This document shows positions 21,002 to 53,295 of a stretch of DNA of 64,000 nt, piece by piece. This DNA comes from Hyphomicrobiaceae bacterium. GTDB lineage: Bacteria > Pseudomonadota > Alphaproteobacteria > Rhizobiales > Hyphomicrobiaceae. How positions within the stretch are numbered: the first letter of the stretch is position 1; each line of letters starts with the position of its first letter. The stretch spans positions 25,793-89,792 of the forward strand of contig WBUN01000013.1 of assembly GCA_008933705.1 (NCBI GenBank). The letters run 5' to 3'. Made by a program: the position numbers and the translations under genes. Under the pieces are notes generated by a model, which worked only from the letters and a program-made list of their open reading frames with translations, did no database searches and was not told the origin of the DNA.

Positions 21002-21076
21002 GCCGCAATAGCTCAGGGGTAGAGCAACGCATTCGTAATGCGTGGGTCGGGGGTTCAAATCCCTCTTGCGGCACCA
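21002..21076 (+). tRNA. tRNA-Thr (anticodon CGU)
   Basis: Manual cloverleaf: acceptor GCCGCAA/TTGCGGC, D arm GCTC-AGGGGTA-GAGC, anticodon arm ACGCA-TTCGTAA-TGCGT, T arm GGGGG-TTCAAAT-CCCTC, encoded ACCA. Confidence 0.9.
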
Positions 21077-28388: not shown

Positions 28389-28652
28389 ATGGCAGAAGTT
28401 CCCGACAACGCCTTGCTGCTCGCGGTCCTGCAGGAAATCAGGCAGGAGCAGAATAAGCAGCGCGCGCTGTTGCTGCAGACGGTCGATTATCTGCGCAAGA
28501 TGGAGCAGCGTCTCGATGCCCGGATCGTGGCGGCGCGCGATGATCTCGAGTTGATGCTGAAAAGCGAGCTGATGGGCAGTCTGACGCATTTTGAGACCAA
28601 GATTGAGGGCCTGTTGGCCCGGCATCTGGGCGCTGTTGAGAAGACGAATTAG
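28389..28652 (+). CDS. small coiled-coil protein, divergent paralogue 4 (87 aa)
   Basis: The MAEVPDNALLL start resembles the family. Heptad-rich. Confidence 0.55.
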   Translation: MAEVPDNALLLAVLQEIRQEQNKQRALLLQTVDYLRKMEQRLDARIVAARDDLELMLKSELMGSLTHFETKIEGLLARHLGAVEKTN

Positions 28653-28789
28653 AGAGAACCCCCTGTCGCGCCCCTCGCATGGCCCGGTAACGGCTGGAAC
28701 CGCTGCCGAGCCTTGGTGGGACAGGCTATGAATGTGCATATGCACGTTCATGCGAGGCCCCCTTGACGCCTGATGATGGCGCGCGACGC

Positions 28790-29005
28790 TCACGCGACGT
28801 TCTCCGTGCGGATGAGCCGCAGGCCGCCCTTGGTGGCCGCCAGCGTCTCCAGCTTGATCTCGTCGATCTCGCCGGCCAGGAGCTTCTTCAGCTCCGCCAG
28901 GGCCTCCGGACGCCGCTTCGCCTCGCCGATGTCGTCGCGGATGCGGGTGAGCAGGCGGTCGGTCGTGAGCGCCTTGGCGGACGGGATGGAAACGCGGATG
29001 GTCAT
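28790..29005 (-). CDS. hypothetical protein (71 aa)
   Basis: ATG 29005 is preceded by GAGGAC. Sequence MTIRVSIPSAKAL...; convergent with paralogue 4. Confidence 0.55.
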   Translation of the reverse strand: MTIRVSIPSAKALTTDRLLTRIRDDIGEAKRRPEALAELKKLLAGEIDEIKLETLAATKGGLRLIRTENVA

Positions 29006-29070
29006 TGTCGTCAGGTCCTCATTTGAGTTGCAGAGGACGCCCCCTGTGGCGCGACGCATGAACAGGGCAA

Positions 29071-29089
29071 TGTTGCAGAAAATGCAACA
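29071..29089. promoter_or_regulatory. candidate operator, perfect palindrome TGTTGCA-N5-TGCAACA
   Basis: GTTGC-N7-GCAAC core. The same half-sites and spacing occur at 30818-30834 in the CI/Cro intergenic region. Confidence 0.5.
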
Positions 29090-29224
29090 ATAGGTCAAGC
29101 GCAGAATTGCGCATTGTACAACTCAAGCGGTGGCAATTGCCGCTGTCGGCGCTACGCGCAGCTCCTCTAGGTAGGCGAGCGCGGGAATGGAATGCAGCGT
29201 TGACGTGCTGTGCTAAAGTGGGCC

Positions 29225-29491
29225 GTGGCTGACACGATCGAAAAGCGCGTTGCCGATCTGGAGCAGATCCTGGCGCACCTTCCGCAGGACCTGGACGCGC
29301 GCTTTGCGGGCGCCGATGCCCGCGCGGGCGCACGCTTCGATCGGCTGAACGTTCAGCTGCAGGCGCTCAAGGCGGAAGTGCAGCAGGGTCAAGTCGCCAC
29401 CGCCGGGCAGATTGCGGCCCTCGACCGCCGCATCGAAGGCATCGAGAGCAAGATCGATGAGCTGCTCGCGCGCTTGGGTCCGAAGCCCTAG
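29225..29491 (+). CDS. small coiled-coil protein, paralogue 5 (GTG start)
   Basis: The upstream GTGCTAAAGTGGGCC-GTGGCTGAC parallels GTGCTAGGATGCCGCC-ATGGCCGAC of the other copies. C-terminus RRIEGIESKIDELLARLG. Confidence 0.6.
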   Translation: MADTIEKRVADLEQILAHLPQDLDARFAGADARAGARFDRLNVQLQALKAEVQQGQVATAGQIAALDRRIEGIESKIDELLARLGPKP

Positions 29492-29494
29492 CCG
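29424..29494. repeat. 71-nt direct repeat, copy 1 (3' end of coiled-coil paralogue 5)
   Basis: accgccgcatcgaaggcatcgagagcaagatcgatgagctgctcgcgcgcttgggtccgaagccctagccg. Confidence 0.9.
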
Positions 29495-30087
29495 TGAAGA
29501 GCGCGGTGGGAGGAGACAATCACCCCCACGATCTGCGCATCGTCCGTTTCCATGTCAATCGAAGATGCGTTGCGCCCGGCGCTGTTCGTGATCAGCAGCG
29601 ATGGCGGAACAAATTGGCGCATCAGTGTGACAGCCTTGCCCGGCCTCTTGGAGTCATAATGATACTGAACACGGACCGCTGACAGGGCTGGGGGATTGGA
29701 GCAGATTTCGGCAGAACCATCTACAACCACGACATCTCCGTTTCTGATGCCCATCCGCGCAAGCGCGTCTGTGTGCACAGTCATCAGATAGCGGTTGCGC
29801 GTCTTGAGGCCTGCAAATGGATCGCTGGGGCCGAGCTCATAGGGCGTCAGCTCCTCGCGAAAACCTTTGAAATCCGCGGCAGAACTCTTGCCGTCATCCA
29901 GCCCAAGAACTTCAGCGGCGCGCCGCTCCAAGGCGGCGGCAATCTTCCGTGCATTCTCGCGTGACACGCCCCTCTTGCCATTCTCCATGCGCGAAATGTG
30001 TGCCACTGAAATGCCGGTCCTCTCCGCAAGTTCCTCTTGAGTAAGGCCCTTTGCCTCCCGCAGCTCGCGAATCCGGTTGTCTGTCAT
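29488..30087 (-). CDS. XRE-HTH / S24(LexA-CI)-fold repressor-like protein 1
   Basis: N-terminal HTH (LTQEELAERTGISVAHISRMENGKR). C-terminal beta-domain with GIRNGDVVVVD. Shares TLMRQFVPPSLLITNS and VGVIVSSH with the next gene. Confidence 0.8.
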   Translation of the reverse strand: MTDNRIRELREAKGLTQEELAERTGISVAHISRMENGKRGVSRENARKIAAALERRAAEVLGLDDGKSSAADFKGFREELTPYELGPSDPFAGLKTRNRYLMTVHTDALARMGIRNGDVVVVDGSAEICSNPPALSAVRVQYHYDSKRPGKAVTLMRQFVPPSLLITNSAGRNASSIDMETDDAQIVGVIVSSHRALHG

Positions 30088-30157
30088 ACCGCCATATCGA
30101 AGGCATCGAGAGTAAGCTCGATGAGCTGCTCGCGCGCTTGGGCCGAAGCCCTAGCCG
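30088..30157. repeat. 70-nt direct repeat, copy 2 (orphan 3' fragment)
   Basis: Four substitutions and a 1-nt deletion versus 29424-29494. Starts 1 nt after the ATG of repressor-like gene 1. Confidence 0.9.
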
Positions 30158-30179
30158 CCGAATCAAACAGGTCCAATGC

Positions 30180-30776
30180 TCAGGTCAGCTTTCCACCGTG
30201 CCAAGACACGATGACCCCTGTGATCCTGGCATCCTCAACTTCCATGTTGATCGGCGGGTAGTTCTCATCACGGCTGTTCGTGATCAATAGGCGGGGCGGG
30301 ATGAACTGGCGGATCAGTGTTGTAGGCTTCGCTCGCTCCTGTTTGTCATAGAGCTGCGCTACGACAGGATCCATGGCCTTCAACTTTCTTATGGCCTCCA
30401 CCGAAGTATCCAATACCGCCACGTAGCCGGCAAAAATACCGAGTTCGCTGAGTACGTTCGTTTTGATCTGGATGAGGCTCTGATTGGGTTTGAGCAGGCG
30501 GCTGAGGCCCTCCGAAGGGTCGGCTTCATAGTCGGCAGCATCTTCTCTGAGGGCAGGCGTGTCGATCCCCAGCACCTCGAACAGGCTGACGTCGAGGGCT
30601 TGCGCGATCTTGCGTGCCATATCGAGGTTCAGGCGCGTCTCCCCCGATTCCAGCCTCGAAACCTGGGACTTCGATATCAGCAACGCCTCGCCGAGCTCCT
30701 CCTGAGAGAGGCCGTGGCGTTCCCGCAAAGCTCTGATCCGACTCGCATGCATAAGCGCATTTTGCGTGCCGGGCAT
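30180..30776 (-). CDS. XRE-HTH / S24-fold repressor-like protein 2 (CI-like, divergent from cro-like)
   Basis: HTH (LSQEELGEALLISKSQVSRLESGE). C-domain TLIRQFIPPRLLITNS, TGVIVSWH. Alternative ATG at 30752. Confidence 0.8.
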   Translation of the reverse strand: MPGTQNALMHASRIRALRERHGLSQEELGEALLISKSQVSRLESGETRLNLDMARKIAQALDVSLFEVLGIDTPALREDAADYEADPSEGLSRLLKPNQSLIQIKTNVLSELGIFAGYVAVLDTSVEAIRKLKAMDPVVAQLYDKQERAKPTTLIRQFIPPRLLITNSRDENYPPINMEVEDARITGVIVSWHGGKLT

Positions 30777-30796
30777 CTCTTTGCAGGCCCGAAATA

Positions 30797-30834
30797 TGCA
30801 ACGTAATGTTGACAAATGTTGCAAATAACGCAAC
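30797..30834. promoter_or_regulatory. CI/Cro switch region: GCAAC/GTTGC inverted repeats and perfect TTGACA
   Basis: TGCAACgtaatGTTGAC (30797-30813), TTGACA (30809-30814), GTTGCaaataacGCAAC (30818-30834). AT-rich 85-bp divergent intergenic region. Confidence 0.5.
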
Positions 30835-30861
30835 TTTGCTTGAACACAAGGAGTGTGGCCG

Positions 30862-31089
30862 ATGCGGCTATGCGATTGGCTGAAAGCGGGAAATATGTCC
30901 GGCGTTGAGTTCGCCGACAAGATCGGGGTGCACCGATCAACGGTGAGCAGATGGCTAGCGGGCACCGCCAAGCCCAGATGGGACGAACTCCCCAAGATCG
31001 AAAGGGCTACCGACGGCAAGGTCATGGCCAACGACTTCGTGAGCATTGGCGCTCCGGTGTCGGCGCCACCGGCGCAGCCTGAGCGTTAG
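30862..31089 (+). CDS. Cro/YdaS-like small HTH protein
   Basis: AAGGAG lies 8 nt upstream. LCDWLKAGNMSGVEFADKIGVHRSTVSRWLAG is HTH-like. Divergent from the CI-like gene. Confidence 0.75.
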   Translation: MRLCDWLKAGNMSGVEFADKIGVHRSTVSRWLAGTAKPRWDELPKIERATDGKVMANDFVSIGAPVSAPPAQPER

Positions 31090-31147
31090 ATCGAGATTCA
31101 GAGGCAGATGCCGCATGACCCGCCCCGTTCGCCAGGACAGCTCAGCC

Positions 31148-31196
31148 AAGCGCAGCCCGGCCAGCCGGTCGCCGCGGCCGGTCAGCGCTTCGCCGG
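31148..31196. repeat. 49-nt repeat, copy 1 (3' end/terminator of 48-aa micro-ORF)
   Basis: aagcgcagcccggccagccggtcgccgcggccggtcagcgcttcgccgg. 47/49 identical to 31912-31960. Confidence 0.85.
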
Positions 31197-31328
31197 TGGC
31201 GCCTGGGGCAGCAGCTTCATCACGAGTTTCGTCAGTCTGCTCACTTGTTCCTCGAGAAGCGCAACGCGGGTGCGCAAATCCTGAAATTGCCTGTTCAGTT
31301 TCTGGAGGTCTGCGTCGGCAGAGGCCAT
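31182..31328 (-). CDS. micro coiled-coil protein (48 aa)
   Basis: Not in the ORF track (<60 aa). GGGAGGAACCC-ATG. Sequence MASADADLQKLNRQFQDLRTRVALLEEQVSRLTKLVMKLLPQAPPAKR. Confidence 0.45.
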   Translation of the reverse strand: MASADADLQKLNRQFQDLRTRVALLEEQVSRLTKLVMKLLPQAPPAKR

Positions 31329-31502
31329 GGGTTCCTCCCGGGAGAGGTTGCTCCCCGCCAGCCGATCTTAGGCGATCGAGGCGGGTGCTGAGCAAGTGGG
31401 GACCCGTCCTGCAAGGTGCGTCGTAGCGTTGCGTTCCCAACAACAGAGGGAGATGCAGCATGAACGGCCAGGAGGTGTGGCCACAGTCCGCGCCCTCGAC
31501 CT

Positions 31503-31757
31503 TCAGCGAGGCGGTTCGGATCTGTCGGGAGGCGAGAGCGGCGTCAGCAGGTCGCAAGCGAACATCCATACCGGCTGAGAAGCGACTGTCTCATCCGGTG
31601 GCTCCTGCTGTGCGAGGTTCTTCAGCTTGCTCCAAATCTGTTCAATGGCGGCAGCGCGGTTGGGAGCAGGCGGAAGAAGTGCGTCTAGCATTGCCTGGAG
31701 CACCAGCTCCAAGGCGGCAACGCGCTTTTGCAGAATGGTGGCTTCGAGCTCAGTCAC
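31503..31757 (-). CDS. small protein with N-terminal coiled coil (84 aa, GTG start)
   Basis: GGAGA lies 5 nt upstream of the GTG. TELEATILQKRVAALELVLQAML. GC3 about 70 percent. Overlapped on the opposite strand by the 31460 ORF. Confidence 0.45.
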   Translation of the reverse strand: MTELEATILQKRVAALELVLQAMLDALLPPAPNRAAAIEQIWSKLKNLAQQEPPDETVASQPVWMFACDLLTPLSPPDRSEPPR

Positions 31758-31911
31758 GTGCGTTCTCCGTCGGCTCGGCGCTTGCGCGCCTGTGGCGTCG
31801 CACCTTCAGGATAGGCCGAGTCGCCCAGCCGACGGATCGTCTCAACTCCGCGGCCAAGGAGACCGACGCGGCATGATCGCTCATCGTCCCTTACGTAACG
31901 CGAGCGCGCCG

Positions 31912-31960
31912 AAGCGCAGCCCGGCCAGCCGGCCGCCGCGGCCGGTCAGCGTTTCGCCGG
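31912..31960. repeat. 49-nt repeat, copy 2 (orphan)
   Basis: Same sequence with 2 substitutions. No intact upstream micro-ORF. Confidence 0.85.
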
Positions 31961-31984
31961 CGCCAGCGGTTCAGGAGAGCAACT

Positions 31985-32239
31985 ATGTCGGGTAATCCTA
32001 GCATCGCGGAATTCTTCCATGCAGAGAACGGGATGACGCGGTTCCCGGCGAATGTTGAGCAATTGCGCGTCGAGAGCGGTCCCGCGCACTGCTGGCTGAT
32101 CGCGCGCCGGAATGATGTCGAGCTCCGGTTCCTGCTCCGCGAGCAGGATAGACGATTCCTGGCTGGGCTTCTTGTGGCTGGTTTGGCCGACAGCCAAGCC
32201 TTGCGGCGGCCTGACGAGATTGCGGCGGACGACTGGTGA
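31985..32239 (+). CDS. hypothetical protein (84 aa)
   Basis: AGGAGAGCAACT-ATG. Normal composition. Ends 55 nt before tRNA-Met. Confidence 0.55.
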   Translation: MSGNPSIAEFFHAENGMTRFPANVEQLRVESGPAHCWLIARRNDVELRFLLREQDRRFLAGLLVAGLADSQALRRPDEIAADDW

Positions 32240-32294
32240 TCCCGCCGCCGAGTGTAACCAGTAGCGTGCTGTGGCGTCGCGTTCCCCCGCTTGG

Positions 32295-32372
32295 TGCAGG
32301 GTGGAGCAGTCCGGTCAGCTCGCGTGGTTCATACCCATGAGGTCGCCGGTTCGAATCCGGCCCCTGCTACCA
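32295..32372 (+). tRNA. prophage tRNA-Met (CAU) with initiator-like features
   Basis: Manual fold: TGCAGGG-TG-GAGC-AGTCCGGTCA-GCTC-G-CGTGG-TTCATAC-CCATG-AGGTC-GCCGG-TTCGAAT-CCGGC-CCCTGCT-A-CCA. Collinear with E. coli tRNA-fMet. Confidence 0.75.
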
Positions 32373-32419
32373 GCGTCCTGTCGTAGCGTTGCGTTCCTGA
32401 CAACAGAGGGAGATGCAGC

Positions 32420-32803
32420 ATGACCCGCGCAGAACTTATCGATGCGATCCTGGCCGGGGCCGCGTACGGCGCTACGCAGCGGGCGCTCAGGTCTGCGGTG
32501 GCGGCTTGCGCGATCATGAACCGTCCGAAACGCGTGGCACTCAAGCCGAAGTACCGGCCCAAGCGGCCATTCTCCCCCCGCAGCCGGGGCCGGCGCATCG
32601 GCCCGGCCTACGAGCCGCGCATCATTCTGCCGCCCGAGTTTCCGACGAACTACGAATACATGGCGGCCGGTTACCCCGACCAGCGCTTCACCGCCGCACA
32701 AGAGGCGGTCGAGGGACGACCCTTGCGGCGGCGCGCTTCGCATCTCTCAGTTATTGCTCAAGATCCGTCACCCGCTTTTGAAGGCGGCGGACCTGTTCCT
32801 TGA
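32420..32803 (+). CDS. hypothetical protein (127 aa)
   Basis: Preceded by the conserved leader with GAGGGAG. High GC3 for about 95 codons. The tail overlaps a convergent micro-ORF. Confidence 0.55.
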   Translation: MTRAELIDAILAGAAYGATQRALRSAVAACAIMNRPKRVALKPKYRPKRPFSPRSRGRRIGPAYEPRIILPPEFPTNYEYMAAGYPDQRFTAAQEAVEGRPLRRRASHLSVIAQDPSPAFEGGGPVP

Positions 32804-32852
32804 GCGCAGTCAGCTCGGTGTTCACGTCGGTCGTATCGGTAGGTGCAGACAT
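32751..32852 (-). CDS. micro coiled-coil protein (33 aa)
   Basis: CCTAGGAGAATTCCC-ATG. Sequence MSAPTDTTDVNTELTALKEQVRRLQKRVTDLEQ. Below the ORF-track size cutoff. Confidence 0.4.
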   Translation of the reverse strand: MSAPTDTTDVNTELTALKEQVRRLQKRVTDLEQ

Positions 32853-32893
32853 GGGAATTCTCCTAGGTTTGGTTGGTACTTCTCCAGGGTGAC

Positions 32894-32984
32894 CATCCTA
32901 GGTGATTCGGGCGGGGGCTGAAGTTCGGCACCCGCCCGATTGGGGGGCGGCGGACGACCGTTGCTCCCGCCGGCGCTTGTTCCA
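32894..32984. repeat. ~91-nt intergenic repeat with two hairpins, copy 1
   Basis: catcctaggtgattCGGGCGGGgGC-N9-GCACCCGCCCGattgg...ccgttgctcccgccggcg.ttgttcca. About 92 percent identical to copy 2. Confidence 0.85.
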
Positions 32985-33022
32985 AGTGGTGTCGTAGAGT
33001 CAATGTAGAAGGTTCAGAGGTT

Positions 33023-33223
33023 CTACTTGAGCAGGCGCCAAAGGACGGCGAGGGAAATGGCGATGTTGGTGCCCACCATCCACTTCAGGACGGCCATCTC
33101 GGCTTCGATCCTGGCAAAGCGCGCATCGAAGGTGGCGACGGACTCGGCGGCCTTGAGGGCCTTGTCCTCGCTGACATTGGCCTCCTTCAAGGCCTCGTAT
33201 ATCTCGCGGTTCATGGTCGCCAT
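33023..33223 (-). CDS. DUF1640-like small protein (coiled coil + C-terminal TM)
   Basis: MATMNREIYEALKEANVSEDKALKAAE...MAVLKWMVGTNIAISLAVLWRLLK resembles DUF1640. Confidence 0.65.
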   Translation of the reverse strand: MATMNREIYEALKEANVSEDKALKAAESVATFDARFARIEAEMAVLKWMVGTNIAISLAVLWRLLK

Positions 33224-33442
33224 GATTGAATGTGGCAGCGGGCTTGCCGGATTGCAAGCACCTCCCTCCCGGGAGGCCGAGGCCGCCTAATCAGGTCGCC
33301 GGCGGATGACCGTTGTTCCCGCCGGCAGCGTTCCCAGTAGCGTCGTGGCGTTGCGTTCCCAACAACAGAGGGAGAAGCCGCATGAGCCCCGCCGAGCAAC
33401 CTGAGCCGCGTCCCCGGGCGTTGCCGGGCCAGTTCATGATCC

Positions 33443-33802
33443 TCAATGGGGATCAGAGCGATTGGGTGTTTGCGCTGCGGCCTGCAGCATGTCCGCGAGC
33501 AGGCATGCAACCAATACTATCTCGCTTACTGTCTCGATGGCTACGTCATCGTTTCGAACGAGATGCCGCGCATCGCGATCAAGGTAGTCGAGAAACTGCT
33601 GATCTGCCGGTGCAGGCAGACGGGCACAGAGGTTCGCAATGAGTGAGATCAGCACGGCCCGTTCGCCCGCCGCAGCGGAGCGCAGCAGGATGGCTTCGCC
33701 AGCGGTGCGGAGCTTTTCGAGCGCGGCTCGGATGGTCTCGGCCTTGGTCTTGTCGAGGACAATCTCGTGCATCCGGTCCGTGAGGTCTGGGGCGTCGGGC
33801 AT
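33443..33802 (-). CDS. hypothetical protein (119 aa)
   Basis: CCTAGGAGATACCCTG-ATG. Helical composition. The C-terminal end overlaps the 33382 plus-strand start. Confidence 0.55.
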   Translation of the reverse strand: MPDAPDLTDRMHEIVLDKTKAETIRAALEKLRTAGEAILLRSAAAGERAVLISLIANLCARLPAPADQQFLDYLDRDARHLVRNDDVAIETVSEIVLVACLLADMLQAAAQTPNRSDPH

Positions 33803-33840
33803 CAGGGTATCTCCTAGGGGTTGGTTGCTTTCGCAAGGGC

Positions 33841-33931
33841 CATCCTAGGTGATTCGGGCGGGTGCTGAAGTTCGGCACCCGCCCGATTGGAGAGCCGGCG
33901 GAGACCGTTGCTCCCGCCGGCGTTTGTTCCA
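33841..33931. repeat. ~91-nt intergenic repeat with two hairpins, copy 2
   Basis: 11-bp perfect stem 33855-33865/33875-33885. A partial third copy lies at about 33296-33336. Confidence 0.85.
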
Positions 33932-33939
33932 GGTAGCGT

Positions 33940-34830
33940 CGTGGCGTTGTGTCCGTGCCCGTTCGTCAGCACGCGTGCGACGTGTCCGGAGCAGCCCTCT
34001 ACCCCAGGGCTGCCGAGGAAGGCGCTGCAACCGCCTGGGCCTTGCCAGCCCGCGTAAGCGTCGCACGCGTGGTGCCGAAGGGCACCGCTGCGATTGCCTG
34101 GGCCAACTGGGGGGAGGTGCATCGCTTCCTGCACCTCTCTCCGGTCCGGGCGGGAGAATTCCTAGCGGCTCCGCGTTCCGCCGAACCCTGGGCTGGGTAA
34201 GGCAGGTGTCTAAGGCGCGGAAGCCGGCGTGCCCCGGGCGAACGGGGACGGAGGCGCGAGGATGGCCACGCCCTCGCGCCTCCGACAGGCAGCACGTTCG
34301 TGGATGGCCTAGGAGGTGAGAACCGTGATGGAAGAGACCGTAGACCGCCGCATCGAGGATGGGCCAGAGGCCATCCTGCCGCTCGCAAGGCTTTCTCGCG
34401 TGCAGCGATTTTGGCGAGCAGTCGCCCGGGCACTTCGGATCATCTGAGTAGCAGTGCGTAGCCCGGCGTCGGCGCCGGGCCGAGAGGGGCGTTCGCGCGC
34501 CTAAGGTCATCGTCGCTTCCAACGACGAGGGCCGCATCTCGGCCCAGCCCTGCCGCAAGGCAGAGCGGATGAAGGAATAACCCGCGGGAGCTCCGGCACG
34601 GCTCGCAAGGCCTCCGGCACCAGAGAGGGACGGCGCGGTCGCGTTACGCCGTAGGGGTTCAGCCCGGCTCCCCTCACCGCAGTGTGCGTGCATCGGCGTA
34701 CGCCGCAGAGGGGCTGCGCACCCCTTTGCGGCGAACGGTGACGCATACCCAAAGCGCAGCCGATCGCCGGGGCCTGTCCGGCGCTGAATGGACTTGCCGG
34801 AGCTCAGCGGCTCCGGCGCTGGGGGTTCAC
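33940..34830 (+). ncRNA. candidate large structured RNA / ORF-poor hairpin-dense segment
   Basis: No credible CDS; the only long ORFs are R/P/A-rich. There are more than 10 strong helices, e.g. 33970-33982/34059-34071 (13 bp, long-range), 34249-34261/34272-34284 (13 bp), 34461-34480, and 34550-34563 with a GCAA loop. A promoter-like GTAGCGT motif lies at 33933. Confidence 0.4.
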
Positions 34831-35385
34831 ATGGACGTCAGTACAAGCACGGTTGCCCTTCTGATGGGCTTCTTCGGCTTTCGGTCGCGGCGCGTCGCGG
34901 ACAAGGTGCGCGCCGGCGCTCAAAGCCGCCACCTGCTCCCGTCTCCCGACATGGCGCCGACTCCGGTCCGGCCAGCTGCCGGCGATCGGCCGGCGTGCCG
35001 TCTGCCCGACCTGCCGCCACGCGAGATGGCCAGGCTCCACGCCGAGCACCTGCTCGCGTGGCTGCTCGATGCGGCCGAGTTCGAGCCGGGCACAGTCATG
35101 GATGCCGGCGAAATGACGCTGACCTACCTGCTGCTGTGCGAGCGCAATGGCTGGAAGGCGCGGCCCTGGAATTCGGTGGCGGTCACCATGAACCGCGCGC
35201 TGGGCGGCAAGCGCTACATGCGGCGCGCGGACCGCCAGGGCATCGAGACACAGGTGCGGGTCTACATCGTCCCGCCTCTCAATCACCGGCTGCGCAAGCC
35301 GAGGAAACCCAAGGCCGATCGCAAGCCGGCGCCACAGGGACTCCAAGGCGGCATGCGGTCGGCAGAGCTCGGGAGGGCCGCATGA
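34831..35385 (+). CDS. hypothetical protein (184 aa)
   Basis: ATG after a hairpin and GGGGG. Basic C-terminus. First gene of a run of ATGA-coupled genes. Confidence 0.55.
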   Translation: MDVSTSTVALLMGFFGFRSRRVADKVRAGAQSRHLLPSPDMAPTPVRPAAGDRPACRLPDLPPREMARLHAEHLLAWLLDAAEFEPGTVMDAGEMTLTYLLLCERNGWKARPWNSVAVTMNRALGGKRYMRRADRQGIETQVRVYIVPPLNHRLRKPRKPKADRKPAPQGLQGGMRSAELGRAA

Positions 35386-35798
35386 CCGTCCGTCTCAAGG
35401 TGGCGATGCTCATCGGAGCCATCTGCGTCGGCGGGGCTGGCGCGATCGCCGTCAAGCTGACGGCGCCAGAACAGCCGAACGCGATGCAGGCCGCCCTCAG
35501 CCTGGCGGTCGCCGACCACCTGTCCCAATCCAGAGCCAGGCTTTGGTCGGGGCGCACGCGCATGGCTCTCTACGGTGGCGCGGAGGACCTCGACGGCCGG
35601 TTCATCGTGTGGGGGGAGCTGTTCGGTCCCGAGGACGACGGTGTGCGCCGGCGCGCGCACCTGCAGGCGCTGCTCTCCCGCGTGTGCGACGACGTCGTTG
35701 CGCACTGCTTCAGCATCGCGCACGTGCTGGTCGATGGGGTGCCCCTTCCGAGCTCCCCGCCCGAGCCTGCCTCCGAGCTGCGCGGAGGCAGCCTATGA
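35382..35798 (+). CDS. hypothetical protein with N-terminal TM (138 aa)
   Basis: ATGA overlap. MTVRLKVAMLIGAICVGGAGAIAV. Confidence 0.55.
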   Translation: MTVRLKVAMLIGAICVGGAGAIAVKLTAPEQPNAMQAALSLAVADHLSQSRARLWSGRTRMALYGGAEDLDGRFIVWGELFGPEDDGVRRRAHLQALLSRVCDDVVAHCFSIAHVLVDGVPLPSSPPEPASELRGGSL

Positions 35799-38833: not shown

Positions 38834-38898
38834 CGTGCAGTCCATCCGGTAGCGTCTGTTGCGTCTGCGTTCCCACAACTCCCACTTCGAGGGACGCA

Positions 38899-46534: not shown

Positions 46535-46987
46535 ATGCACCGGGGGGATGAGAAGGATCGTGGCGACGCCAAGGGGAGGCGCGCTGCACAAGACGCCGTG
46601 AGTCCGGCGGCTTCAGAGATGACTGGCACCAGTACGCGGGCTGAAAGGCGCAGGGCGACGCGTCGGCTTGTCCTGAAGGCCGGCATCGTGGCCTTCAATG
46701 ATCGCCACTCGACCCTGCCCTGCAGGGTGCGCAACATTTCCGAGACGGGCGCGCGCCTCGAAATTGGCGGTTCACTCAATGCGCCCGACACGTTCGACCT
46801 CATCATCGAGATCGATGGGCTGGAAGCCCGTTGCGAAGTGATACGGCGTAACGGCAACCAAATCGCAGTCAGATTCGTGTCGCCTCCACGCATCACGGCA
46901 TCGCGACGGGTGCAGGTGATCAAGGCTTATGTGCCGGTGCAGCCGCCTTCGCTTCGACGCAAGTCGAAACCCGGTGAACCATGTTGA
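46535..46987 (+). CDS. PilZ domain protein (c-di-GMP receptor type)
   Basis: RRRATRR (RxxxR) and NISETGARL (D/NxSxxG) motifs. Alternative start at 46619. Confidence 0.7.
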   Translation: MHRGDEKDRGDAKGRRAAQDAVSPAASEMTGTSTRAERRRATRRLVLKAGIVAFNDRHSTLPCRVRNISETGARLEIGGSLNAPDTFDLIIEIDGLEARCEVIRRNGNQIAVRFVSPPRITASRRVQVIKAYVPVQPPSLRRKSKPGEPC

Positions 46988-49818: not shown

Positions 49819-50208
49819 CCAACGCGTCTTTATTTATTTCCGCTGGAATTTCGCGAACCTTTCGGCGACGTCGGCCTTGACCGACATTTCCCCAAGTACC
49901 CCCGTGGCGACCCGAGACTACCCAGCCAACCGTGCATCTGCAACCGCCATCACACGGTCCTGGCCGTTGCGGTCGTGCCCCGTGGCGCTCCCGCGTCGTG
50001 ATCCTGGACGTCCGGTAGCGGCGCGGTAACCCGCACACCCCCTTCGACCGATCAAATCGCTCACTGCATTTGCCATGGTGCAGTGGCTCGCCGACGGTCG
50101 TTGCGGGTAGCTGCCGGGACCCACGATCGAAGATGCTTGAGTGCTGTGAACAAGAAACCCCGGCCAGGAAACTGGCCGGGGTTCATCAACTCAGCAACCG
50201 ACGCTCCG

Positions 50209-51246
50209 CTACGGACGCCCGATCACCTTGCAGCGCCCGGAGCGACCGCGGGCGATCTGGCCGTCGCACTCCCATTGCAGGAGCCACTTGGAGACAGCGC
50301 TCTTGCTGACGCCGGCCCAGGCGGCCAGGTGATCCTGGCTCGGGATGATGCGACCGGCGGTGAGCTCTGCCCGCACGTACGCGAGCGTGATCTCGCTGCT
50401 CTTCGGCTTCACGGGAAACACGAGAACTGACGCCGACGGTTTCCGAGTTTCTGCTTTGTTGCTCGGTTTCCGGCGCTTGGATGGCCCGCCAGCGCTGGGC
50501 CCAGACGGGACGGTTTCCATGCTGACGGTTTCCGAGGCCACCGCGCTGGTCCCGGAAACCCGGCGACCGAGACCGATACCCAGAAACACGATGGTCGCGA
50601 TCTCCAGGAACATCGCCTTCACGAACGGGAAGAACAGGAGCAAGGCCCGCTCGATCGCTGGCGCCTCGGCGGTCACGAACGGCAACGCGGCGAACACCTT
50701 GGCCGCATGCTTGATGTCGGCGTTCTCCACCTGCTCGGCCTTCATGTTCGAGAGACGCGCCTCGAGCAGCAGAACGTGGCTGTAGGCCCGATCCTGCACC
50801 TTCGTTACGCCCTTGCACTTCGGCCCCTCGCCGCTGGCGCATTCCTTGGTCACGGCGAGCGTCACCTTGCGGAGATCCTCCTTGGCCTCGACGATATCCG
50901 CCTCGAGCTTATGGCGCTCACCATTGCTCTTCTGAGTCTCACTCGACTTGACGACCACCACGACCGCATTGCGGCCGGCGCTGGTGGTGACGCAGTAGAA
51001 GGTGCCGGCCAGGAACAGAACCGCCAGGCCGAGCGACGGGCCCACGTGGAACGCGCGGGCCTGGTGCCAGAACATGTGGCCGGACGAGATCGTGCCGATC
51101 AGCACCAGCAGCGTCATGACGTGGTCTGTGGTGACGCCGGCGCCCTGCCGGAGCACGTCCTCGAAGAGCACGTAGCACGTGCCCAACGCAAACAGCGCCC
51201 CCAGACCGATTGCCGGCCAGGAGCGAATGGTAGTATGTATAGACAT
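50209..51246 (-). CDS. membrane protein with coiled coil and C-terminal wHTH
   Basis: Four N-terminal TM segments and a central coiled coil. C-terminus SQDHLAAWAGVSKSAVSKWLLQWECDGQI is HTH-like. Confidence 0.6.
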   Translation of the reverse strand: MSIHTTIRSWPAIGLGALFALGTCYVLFEDVLRQGAGVTTDHVMTLLVLIGTISSGHMFWHQARAFHVGPSLGLAVLFLAGTFYCVTTSAGRNAVVVVVKSSETQKSNGERHKLEADIVEAKEDLRKVTLAVTKECASGEGPKCKGVTKVQDRAYSHVLLLEARLSNMKAEQVENADIKHAAKVFAALPFVTAEAPAIERALLLFFPFVKAMFLEIATIVFLGIGLGRRVSGTSAVASETVSMETVPSGPSAGGPSKRRKPSNKAETRKPSASVLVFPVKPKSSEITLAYVRAELTAGRIIPSQDHLAAWAGVSKSAVSKWLLQWECDGQIARGRSGRCKVIGRP

Positions 51247-52882: not shown

Positions 52883-53061
52883 TCGTCATGTCCTGTTGGC
52901 CGTCATACCTGCAGTCGGAATATACGCTGTTCGCCCCGGTGCGAGAAGGCTCACGGAGCGTGGACCGCTTCGATCTCCTTGTGCGATAGGCCGGCAATAC
53001 AAGCATCCCGAGAAGGCTGGCCGCGTCACGATAGCGGGCAAGCCATCGGCACTGTATCAGT

Positions 53062-53295
53062 TTAGCTGTGGCCCCCGATCGTGCCCCGTTTGGTGACGCG
53101 GCCACCCTCGGTCACCGCGTAGGTGATCTTTGCGTTCGAGCCCACGGCACGAACGTTTGTGTTCAGGTATTTCGCGACAGCCTCTGCCTGGGCTAGATCG
53201 GCGGGCTTTTGTAGCTCGAAGACCAGCTGACTGTCCTCGTCTATGACGAAGCACGCCTCATTGGGATTGCGTTCCTTTGCGACGAATTTCACCAT
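53062..53295 (-). CDS. hypothetical protein (77 aa)
   Basis: ORF of moderate GC3, divergent from 53353. Confidence 0.5.
   Translation of the reverse strand: MVKFVAKERNPNEACFVIDEDSQLVFELQKPADLAQAEAVAKYLNTNVRAVGSNAKITYAVTEGGRVTKRGTIGGHS

Follow-up and report, generated by a model that had tools for sequence, protein, structure and literature searches.

Here we examine a gene-free segment (33940-34830) in the early region of a prophage carried by a Hyphomicrobiaceae bacterium, within a 64,000-nucleotide (nt) stretch of contig WBUN01000013.1 that was analysed as a whole and is referred to below as the window. A first-pass annotation had proposed that the segment is one large structured RNA. Taken together, our comparisons with related loci support a structured RNA of the plus strand, and, judged by the compensatory substitutions in their helices, two modules within it, a core and a block that we call A1, are conserved. 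The RNA family so defined is real, has no match in Rfam 15 and is represented so far by about 10 metagenomic phage loci. With roughly even confidence, we suggest that the segment serves as a modular, cis-acting structured 5' leader of a replication-gene operon, transcribed left to right. Only for a few enterobacterial phages is there a good understanding of the structured leaders that control early or replication operons (nut, put and the P4/P1 immunity RNAs); in phages of Hyphomicrobiales, to our knowledge, almost nothing is known of them.

The locus and its genes

The prophage adjoins a tRNA-Thr at 21002 and carries HTH_3 proteins, its immunity genes, at about 29.5-31.1 kb. The gene-free segment is bounded by a leftward gene of 119 amino acids (aa; 33443-33802) and a rightward 184-aa gene, and a tRNA-Met (32295-32372) lies upstream on the same strand as the RNA segment, so the earlier placement in a prophage early region near a phage tRNA was correct. 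The immediate borders of the segment are as follows.

33854-33886, strand unspecified: strong, terminator-like hairpin lacking a U-run, with two 16-nt arms, situated between the RNA and the divergent 119-aa gene
33894-33939, plus strand: cassette header, made of a hairpin CGGCGG..CCGCCG (33895-33921), then UUUGUUCCAG, then GTAGCGT (33933-33939)
34821-34825, plus strand: Shine-Dalgarno sequence (SD) GGGGG of the 184-aa gene
34831 (ATG) to 35385, plus strand: 184-aa gene for a winged-helix protein, which opens the replication module

Downstream of the 184-aa gene follow a VRR-NUC nuclease, an HTH_36 replication initiator, a DnaA_C-like protein and a C5 methylase. The 184-aa protein belongs to a family without Pfam or PHROG match whose members in metagenomes are 36-48% identical, and the homologues P0002-P0012 have a common N-terminus. 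Its AlphaFold2 model has a winged-helix core at residues ~60-150 (block-mean predicted local distance difference test score ~90), preceded by a hydrophobic N-terminus and then a conserved (F)RSRR, and followed by a basic C-terminal tail; Foldseek searches with this model gave weak, generic winged-helix matches only (e.g. Orc1/Cdc6 and PadR). This fold ruled out the protein as a lambda-N-like antiterminator, and none of the 10 neighbouring proteins has an antiterminator match in PHROG or Pfam.

A conserved core with compensatory substitutions

Contigs carrying metagenomic homologues of the 184-aa protein yielded eleven further loci (L008-L011 and L013-L019). Ten loci were informative for the leader, L013 being left out as it has too little upstream sequence; the 5' domain comparison below covers these ten loci and the alignment of the 3' domain nine sequences. 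By blastn and nhmmer, conservation is limited to a part of the spacer, and 34533-34689 shares 75-81% nucleotide identity with the relatives, more than the adjacent coding sequence. The core is conserved at 75-81% in 8 loci, where the adjacent coding sequence has 67-68% nucleotide and 38-48% protein identity. It spans 212 nt (34461-34672, plus strand) and consists of a 5' domain and a 3' five-helix junction, with the following parts.

34461-34480, plus strand: P0 hairpin, GCCCGGCG-UCGG-CGCCGGGC, present in 10/10 loci with 96% of cells paired
34481-34541, plus strand: three-way junction, closed by CGAGA (34481-85) with UCUCG (34537-41)
34487-34502 and 34510-34528, plus strand: variable hairpins Pa and Pb within the three-way junction, alongside a conserved CCUAAG
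34550-34563, plus strand: H1 hairpin, CUGCC-GCAA-GGCAG with a GNRA loop, identical in 9/10 loci, with one compensated pair in L017
34586-91 with 34667-72, plus strand: P2, which encloses P3-P6
34593-96/34614-17 plus 34600-03/34609-12, plus strand: P3, with loop (U)CGCAA(G)
34620-22 with 34626-28, plus strand: P4, from RNAalifold
34630-37 with 34642-52, plus strand: P5, from RNAalifold
34655-58 with 34662-65, plus strand: P6, from RNAalifold

From the nine sequences RNAalifold returned H1 together with the five-helix junction (34586-34672). Across H1 and the 3' domain 34 pairs were tested, 29 of them in the 3' junction itself; 99.7% of cells are paired and 8 pairs are compensatory, with at least one in each of P2-P6. 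The covariation score of 0.199 compares with 0.091 for shuffled partners (0/500 reach the observed value), and the signal is lost (~0) when the partners are slid by 1-3 columns. Near-invariant positions include the loops (U)CGCAA(G) and CGGUYGCGUNA as well as the junction bases AGCAC, and several GNRA loops are exposed. Moreover, the conserved helices contain ~30 G·U cells against 5 non-standard ones, and because a G·U would be a C·A on the opposite strand, the functional molecule should be the plus-strand RNA, co-oriented with the operon. In four loci P6 stacked on P2 is followed by G-CCA; a tRNA-like 3' domain was not adopted, since both ARAGORN and the Rfam tRNA model miss the element and the window does not preserve this CCA.

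With a covariance model (CM) of the element, R1, each locus gives a single copy, which in every case lies upstream of the 184-aa homologue. The distance from the core to that homologue is 65-160 nt in 9/9 core-bearing loci, both being on the same strand; the homologue is the first gene 3' of the RNA throughout, and the leader is 370-860 nt long. Neither pattern scans of contigs nor CM R1 found the element away from the 184-aa gene family. R1 also has a weak partial match in the window at 46700-46799 (+; 16 bits), consisting of UCGC..CUCG.CCCUGC.CUG and a GGGCGC/GCGCCC stem with most of the model absent, which is probably due to chance.

Wider searches added little. The homologue collection and covariation test suggested at the outset did produce relatives with compensatory changes, although blastn of the region against phage and plasmid collections gave no match. 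Viral and genome contigs scanned with the flanking proteins or their alignment yielded no relatives, a three-loop DNA pattern had 0 matches in viral and genome contigs, and an A1 DNA pattern had 0 in viral contigs. A single three-loop match in metagenome contigs (L012) lies within a coding region and a single P0...H1 match (L020) within a Pro/Gly-rich gene, and both were set aside as chance. Exact-protein look-ups of the window's genes returned identical copies only (L001-L007). With Rfam 15 the whole window gives two tRNAs only at the gathering threshold, 33700-35000 only chance miRNA/CRISPR-type matches of 12-20 bits at E<=10, and 29000-34600 only tRNA at E<=1, while the homologous loci give only tRNA and suhB, both outside the element. 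The segment is therefore not a known family, which was the check that the first-pass annotation had put first.

Two mutually exclusive folds of the 5' domain

Each of the ten informative loci has the 5' domain (34461-34563), even L015 and L017, where the 3' domain is missing. Variation in P0 is wobble-compatible on the plus strand throughout, the CGAGA/UCUCG helix has compensatory changes in 4/5 pairs, and the two hairpins inside the three-way junction are retained in every locus with divergent sequences. Two mutually exclusive structures can be drawn for this domain. Fold A comprises the P0 hairpin, the three-way junction and the GNRA hairpin H1 (97.8% paired over the 10 loci). In Fold B, P0 and its loop pair with H1 and the sequence just before it, H1 thus doubling as the 3' partner of P0, to give one long interrupted helix (34461-34560; 98.0% paired over the 10 loci). 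Each fold has 5-6 double-change pairs (6 for Fold B), and because both are ~98% paired with such double changes we propose a two-state element. Fold B is the minimum free energy (MFE) structure in 9/10 loci, with Fold A 1-17 kcal/mol higher. Such a dual constraint on the fold would explain the near-invariance of these ~45 nt of the 5' domain.

The most divergent locus, L017, carries a U-to-C change in H1 that is compensated at both alternative partners. There the H1 equivalent (735-775), CCCCGUC-GCAA-GGCGGGG, is directly followed by UUUUCUCUUUCU and has the shape of an intrinsic terminator, so that Fold A versus Fold B would in this locus be a terminator/antiterminator choice; a U tract behind H1 is found in L017 only.

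The A1 module and an exchangeable slot

Outside the core the segment contains the following features, all on the plus strand.

33970-34071: multi-stem junction of A1, closed by a perfect 13-bp helix (33970-33982/34059-34071)
33991-34013, 34021-34035 and 34037-34051: inner hairpins of A1, namely Ha, Hb (loop CUGCAAC) and Hc (loop CUUGCCA), with the junction GCGUA
34071-34086 and 34106-34145: accessory hairpins of A1, GGUGCC-GAAG-GGCACC and a G-rich hairpin, both with counterparts in L014
34146-34460: middle filler, with a CCCCG/CGGGG hairpin, a perfect 13-bp hairpin (34249-34284), an SD and micro-ORF (open reading frame; 34316/34328-34447) and a GGCCATCCT cluster
34673-34820: variable 3' part of the leader, with hairpins at 34701-34733, further ones, and one at 34796-34817 just ahead of the SD

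A structural homologue of A1 lies in L014 (5483-5582), between a GGTAGCGT motif and P0. Between the two closing helices there are three differences, each of them compensated; the inner hairpins have altered stems but the same loops (UGCAAC and CUUGCC), with 1 compensated stem change in Hc; and the accessory hairpins follow in the same order as GGUGCC-GAUCA-GCACC and then GGGGGAGAGCAU..AUGCUCUCCCCC. Over the 22 pairs tested between the two loci 97.7% are paired and 4 are compensated. A1 is missing from 7/8 other core-bearing loci, among them L009, L011, L016 and L019.

In relatives the position ahead of the core is taken by other RNAs. Matches to the suhB/MmgR (alpha-r8) small RNA (sRNA) of 56-65 bits, where we counted scores of >= 41 bits as membership, lie on the leader strand directly upstream in L009 (2673-2750), L011 (522-600) and L014 (5384-5460), and such phage-borne MmgR-like sRNAs may be a topic of interest in their own right; the window has no suhB match. 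In L009 and L011 this sRNA (RF00519, 65 bits) ends ~12 nt ahead of P0. L009, L011 and L016 have a tRNA-Met on the leader strand ahead of the element, in L009 and L011 further upstream than the sRNA. The slot ahead of the core is thus exchangeable for structured RNAs, holding tRNA-Met and an MmgR-like sRNA in relatives and A1 plus ~310 nt in the window.

On the 3' side of the core, hairpin 34701-34733 (inner GGGG..CCCC, then UUUG) is weakly terminator-like. All relatives have hairpins at equivalent positions, unrelated in sequence, up to an exposed G-rich SD, and several of these downstream hairpins are G+C-rich with short U tracts (UCUUUCC, AUUUCCC); no canonical terminator was called.

The 11-mer GCTCGCAAGGC of the P3 loop region (34601-34611) recurs exactly at 34381-34391, inside the unconserved filler and the micro-ORF, and the context of this second copy (CCUGCCGCUCGCAAGGC) resembles H1. 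The stretch 34381-34391 may be a decayed duplicate of a portion of the core.

Folding energy

The folding check against dinucleotide-shuffled controls (100 shuffles) gave MFE z-scores for 33940-34830 of -5.1 on the plus and -3.8 on the minus strand, beyond the controls as had been anticipated. Among 255 tiled 250-nt windows of the 64 kb (mean z -0.44, standard deviation 1.26), the minimum falls at 33751-34000 (-6.06), and 34001-34250 ranks third from the bottom (-4.04). The A1 region (33956-34205) has z -4.15, 34206-34455 an unremarkable -1.7, and the conserved core ~ -0.2, so z-scores alone would miss the part that is best conserved. The same tiling has other plus-strand outliers at 50001-50250 (z -5.3), 53001-53250 (-3.7) and 28501-28750 (-3.4).

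Every helix listed in the first-pass annotation is present in the sequence where it had been placed. One of them, the local hairpin GGGCCG/CGGCCC (34529-34545), is not kept in relatives and is replaced by the covarying long-range CGAGA/UCUCG helix, and the list missed the five-helix junction at 34586-34672, the best-supported domain.

The segment lacks a convincing gene

A GC frame plot has no codon periodicity from ~33800 to ~34860 (maximum minus minimum GC per phase 0.02-0.22), compared with 0.35-0.43 in the flanking 119-aa and 184-aa genes. Public gene callers (Logan assemblies) place a 282-aa, Arg/Pro/Ala-rich ORF on the minus strand at 33845-34693. In tblastn searches the part that matches relatives is limited to residues 5-54, which overlie the conserved RNA core; its variable columns fall 25/14/18 by codon position, so that a third-position excess is absent; and indels in the conserved core are 1, 2, 5, 6, 7 and 8 nt long. 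Because the matches are confined to the core, the third-position excess is absent and the indels break the frame, we rejected this ORF as a gene and regard it as a high-G+C artefact, which corrects a spurious gene in the public gene calls. An 83-aa ORF (33949-34200) was likewise rejected, having no significant tblastn match in related loci, including the A1-homologous stretch of L014. The absence of a convincing gene and the artefactual nature of the long ORFs, both asserted from the letters alone, are thus borne out for these two ORFs. As regards the embedded micro-ORF (39-43 aa), for which a mixed coding and noncoding locus had been considered, the SD and reading frame are there, with AGGAGG 8-11 nt upstream of a GTG/ATG and a faint GC3>GC1>GC2 pattern, but no homologue occurs among the 5.8 and 1.8 billion proteins of two protein collections.

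Cassette headers and other DNA motifs

The header in front of A1 is one of several copies, each composed of a hairpin GCGGCGGA..CCCGCCGC, then (U)UGUUCCAG, then GTAGCGT, sometimes with a common 5' untranslated region bearing the SD GAGGGAG. Copies lie at 31420-31473, 32222-32267, 32380-32433, 32947-32992, 33300-33395, 33894-33947 and 38849-38855. They precede small plus-strand genes (ATG 31460, 32420 and 33382), tRNA-Met, the A1 module and the methylase gene, and the header is conserved in L008, L009, L011, L014 and L015. GTAGCGT, described earlier as a recurrent motif ahead of the segment and the tRNA, is in fact enriched in the window (9 copies vs 3.1 expected). GGTAGCGT stands directly ahead of A1 in L014 and ~20 nt ahead of P0 in L016 and L019 (there GTAGCGT). 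The header could be a candidate promoter, processing site, recombination boundary or boundary signal ahead of the RNA. A reading of GTAGCGT as a -10 element was considered; in L014 the motif lies partly within the A1 closing helix, which argues for its being transcribed. A sigma-70 promoter scan of 31000-35500 found no promoter.

Five copies of GGCCATCCT at <=1 mismatch lie within 540 nt, where 3 of the window's 4 exact copies are found. A motif search placed them as follows.

33838-33846, plus strand: GGCCATCCT copy
34259-34267, minus strand: GGCCATCCT copy
34301-34309, minus strand: GGCCATCCT copy
34356-34364, minus strand: GGCCATCCT copy
34369-34377, plus strand: GGCCATCCT copy

The last two form an inverted repeat within the micro-ORF. 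This cluster is a possible set of protein-binding DNA sites, for example for the adjacent winged-helix or the 119-aa protein. A palindrome, CACGCGTG, is present in both arms of the 13-bp helix. A 108-nt repeat (32893-33000 = 33840-33947) includes the hairpin 33854-33886, of which L016 has a homologue at 1775-1815. Elsewhere in the prophage, a 55-nt direct repeat of 93% identity (29424-29478 and 30088-30142) has its copies close to the junctions of a neighbouring pair of ~199-aa HTH_3 repressor-like genes, and suggests that the immunity repressor has been tandemly duplicated.

A proposed cis-acting leader

The core is always found directly upstream of, and co-oriented with, the winged-helix gene, which speaks for a leader rather than a free-standing giant RNA. 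Such a leader would act in cis, with co-transcriptional folding or a bound factor perhaps determining the switch between Folds A and B, and the five-helix 3' domain would be a likely effector-binding or tertiary-docking module. After prophage induction, fold switching would then act as a gate on the replication genes, at the level of read-through or of translation, and A1 and the unconserved 310-nt filler may be accessory cargo in a variable slot. A further step, which we think rather unlikely, is that the core represents a new class of bistable RNA switch, in which the 5' domain flips between a state with P0 and H1 displayed and one long helix, the 3' domain serves as sensor or docking site, and the replication genes are thereby coupled to a cellular signal or factor.

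In its behaviour the element is most like the leaders of the riboswitch and attenuator type, an analogy drawn from its position, its junction domain and its alternative pairings; it fits none of their class definitions. Similar to these leaders, it lies upstream of and co-oriented with one gene family (9/9 core-bearing loci), has a covarying multi-helix junction with invariant junction and loop nucleotides, and combines mutually exclusive pairings of its 5' domain with variable hairpins between the conserved domain and the SD. However, it differs from them in matching no Rfam class, in that no conserved terminator or SD-sequestering helix was found in the loci compared, in having its switch-like part 5' rather than 3' of the junction domain, and in being unusually long (370-860 nt) and modular.

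Several observations weigh against the leader reading. That the element keeps its place ahead of the gene could be due to conserved synteny and nothing more, and the 5' domain, being G+C-rich and near-palindromic, may satisfy two folds partly by construction. The covariation statistics are thin because they come from 9-10 sequences of ~6 lineages, with a CM effective sequence number of 1.22. A1 (a 175-nt block, 33970-34145) has one homologue only, in L014, and the ~310 nt at 34146-34460 have none in any related locus, so that the sequence comparison supports neither conserved RNA nor coding function for this stretch. Downstream, we found neither a conserved canonical intrinsic terminator nor a conserved helix that would clearly sequester the SD. 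Finally, ~12 nt separate the end of the sRNA terminator from P0 in L009 and L011, which bears on where the transcript starts.

Alternative explanations

A minor but appreciable probability attaches to the core, and separately A1, being stand-alone noncoding RNA (ncRNA) genes. Their products would be stable RNAs, released by processing or by termination ahead of the gene, that work in trans, whether against targets in host or phage or as protein-binding or sponge RNAs, and that travel as cargo much as the nearby tRNA-Met and MmgR-like sRNA do. Relatives carry other ncRNA genes in the same slot, modules are gained and lost independently (L015 and L017 have the 5' domain without the 3' domain), in most loci G+C-rich hairpins with short U tracts come after the 3' domain, and binding surfaces are suggested by the exposed GNRA loops together with loop sequences that do not vary. 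Yet L016 and L019 have no terminator-like hairpin in the 65-70 nt between the 3' domain and the SD, the element is never found apart from the 184-aa gene family, and the sigma-70 scan detected no promoter. Two kinds of phage-associated RNA may be compared here. The suhB/MmgR sRNA (RF00519) is an alphaproteobacterial ncRNA that occupies the same genomic slot in L009, L011 and L014, but it is a distinct RNA and the new core does not score against its model. The P4 CI and P1-P7 C4 immunity RNAs are structured and are processed out of phage early leader transcripts. The P6/P2 stack with G-CCA in four loci faintly recalls an RNase P substrate; on the other hand there is no Rfam C4 match, complementary target repeats were not identified, and the window has not kept the CCA tail.

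Improbable in our view is a processive antitermination element in the style of HK022 put or EAR, whose nascent RNA would bind RNA polymerase and make it resistant to the operon's hairpin terminators. The element does stand at the start of a long operon, where terminator-like hairpins are frequent, its location is in cis and its conservation independent of coding sequence, and relatives must read through the nearby sRNA terminator. That terminator, however, lies upstream of the element in L009 and L011, so the element cannot act on it. An HK022 put site has two stem-loops side by side (~65-70 nt), through which it binds RNA polymerase and overrides terminators further downstream, and lambda nut consists of a single-stranded boxA followed by the boxB hairpin (5-bp stem, GNRA-like loop), its partner being N with an arginine-rich RNA-binding peptide. 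Both share with our element a position in the early transcript just upstream of the operon's first gene, and H1, identical in 9/10 loci, is a 5-bp hairpin with a GNRA loop reminiscent of boxB. In sequence and architecture the element does not resemble the two simple stem-loops of put, its three-way and five-helix junctions being far more complex; compared with nut, its sole boxA-like stretch, CGCAUCUCG, is base-paired, forming the 3' side of a helix with 4/5 pairs covarying, and the downstream protein is a folded winged-helix rather than an arginine-rich N peptide.

The three remaining explanations are disfavoured. The original proposal of one ornate RNA of ~0.9 kb, a functional analogue of GOLLD or ROOL, we now hold quite improbable. 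GOLLD and ROOL are RNAs of ~580-800 nt that form one conserved unit with many multistem junctions and pseudoknots and occur in prophages, often beside tRNA genes (PMC5737381; PMC12286853). The present segment resembles them in its prophage location near a tRNA gene on the same strand, in its several multistem junctions and GNRA loops, and in the z of -5.1 for its whole 891 nt. It differs in having no match to their CMs or to any Rfam family, and in that its conserved units measure 175 nt for A1 (two loci) and 212 nt for the core (nine loci), gained and lost independently of each other and tied to one downstream gene. In fact A1 and the 3' domain are not co-conserved across the loci described above, the middle ~310 nt is without homologue, and no conserved long-range pairing joins the modules. 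The element is also known from only a handful of alphaproteobacterial (Hyphomicrobiaceae-type) metagenomic phages.

Very improbable is an element acting as DNA, either a replication origin or operator cluster whose palindromes appear as helices, or hairpins of single-stranded DNA. The segment adjoins the replication module and a predicted DNA-binding winged-helix protein, has five GGCCATCCT copies in 540 nt, and carries CACGCGTG in both arms of the 13-bp helix. Against this, the excess of G·U over non-standard cells is strand-specific and duplex DNA sites need none, the compensatory changes fall in irregular multi-helix junctions, and the conserved core has neither iterons nor an A+T-rich stretch. 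That the 282-aa, 83-aa or micro-ORF is a real gene is scarcely credible, since the gene callers' annotation of the first and the AGGAGG spacing and faint codon pattern of the last stand against the missing periodicity, the core-only and frame-broken matches of the 282-aa ORF, and the want of homologues for the other two in the searches given above.

Significance

The locus offers an Rfam-unmatched, covarying RNA family with a candidate two-state 5' domain and an elaborate 3' junction, at the very point where control of phage replication would be expected. This group of phages keeps an exchangeable 'ncRNA slot' in which tRNA-Met, an MmgR-like sRNA and A1 are found. If the switch is true, it would be an RNA-level checkpoint in the lysis/lysogeny decision of alphaproteobacterial phages, flanked by exchangeable modules such as A1, and would provide a tractable system for RNA-based control of prophage induction.

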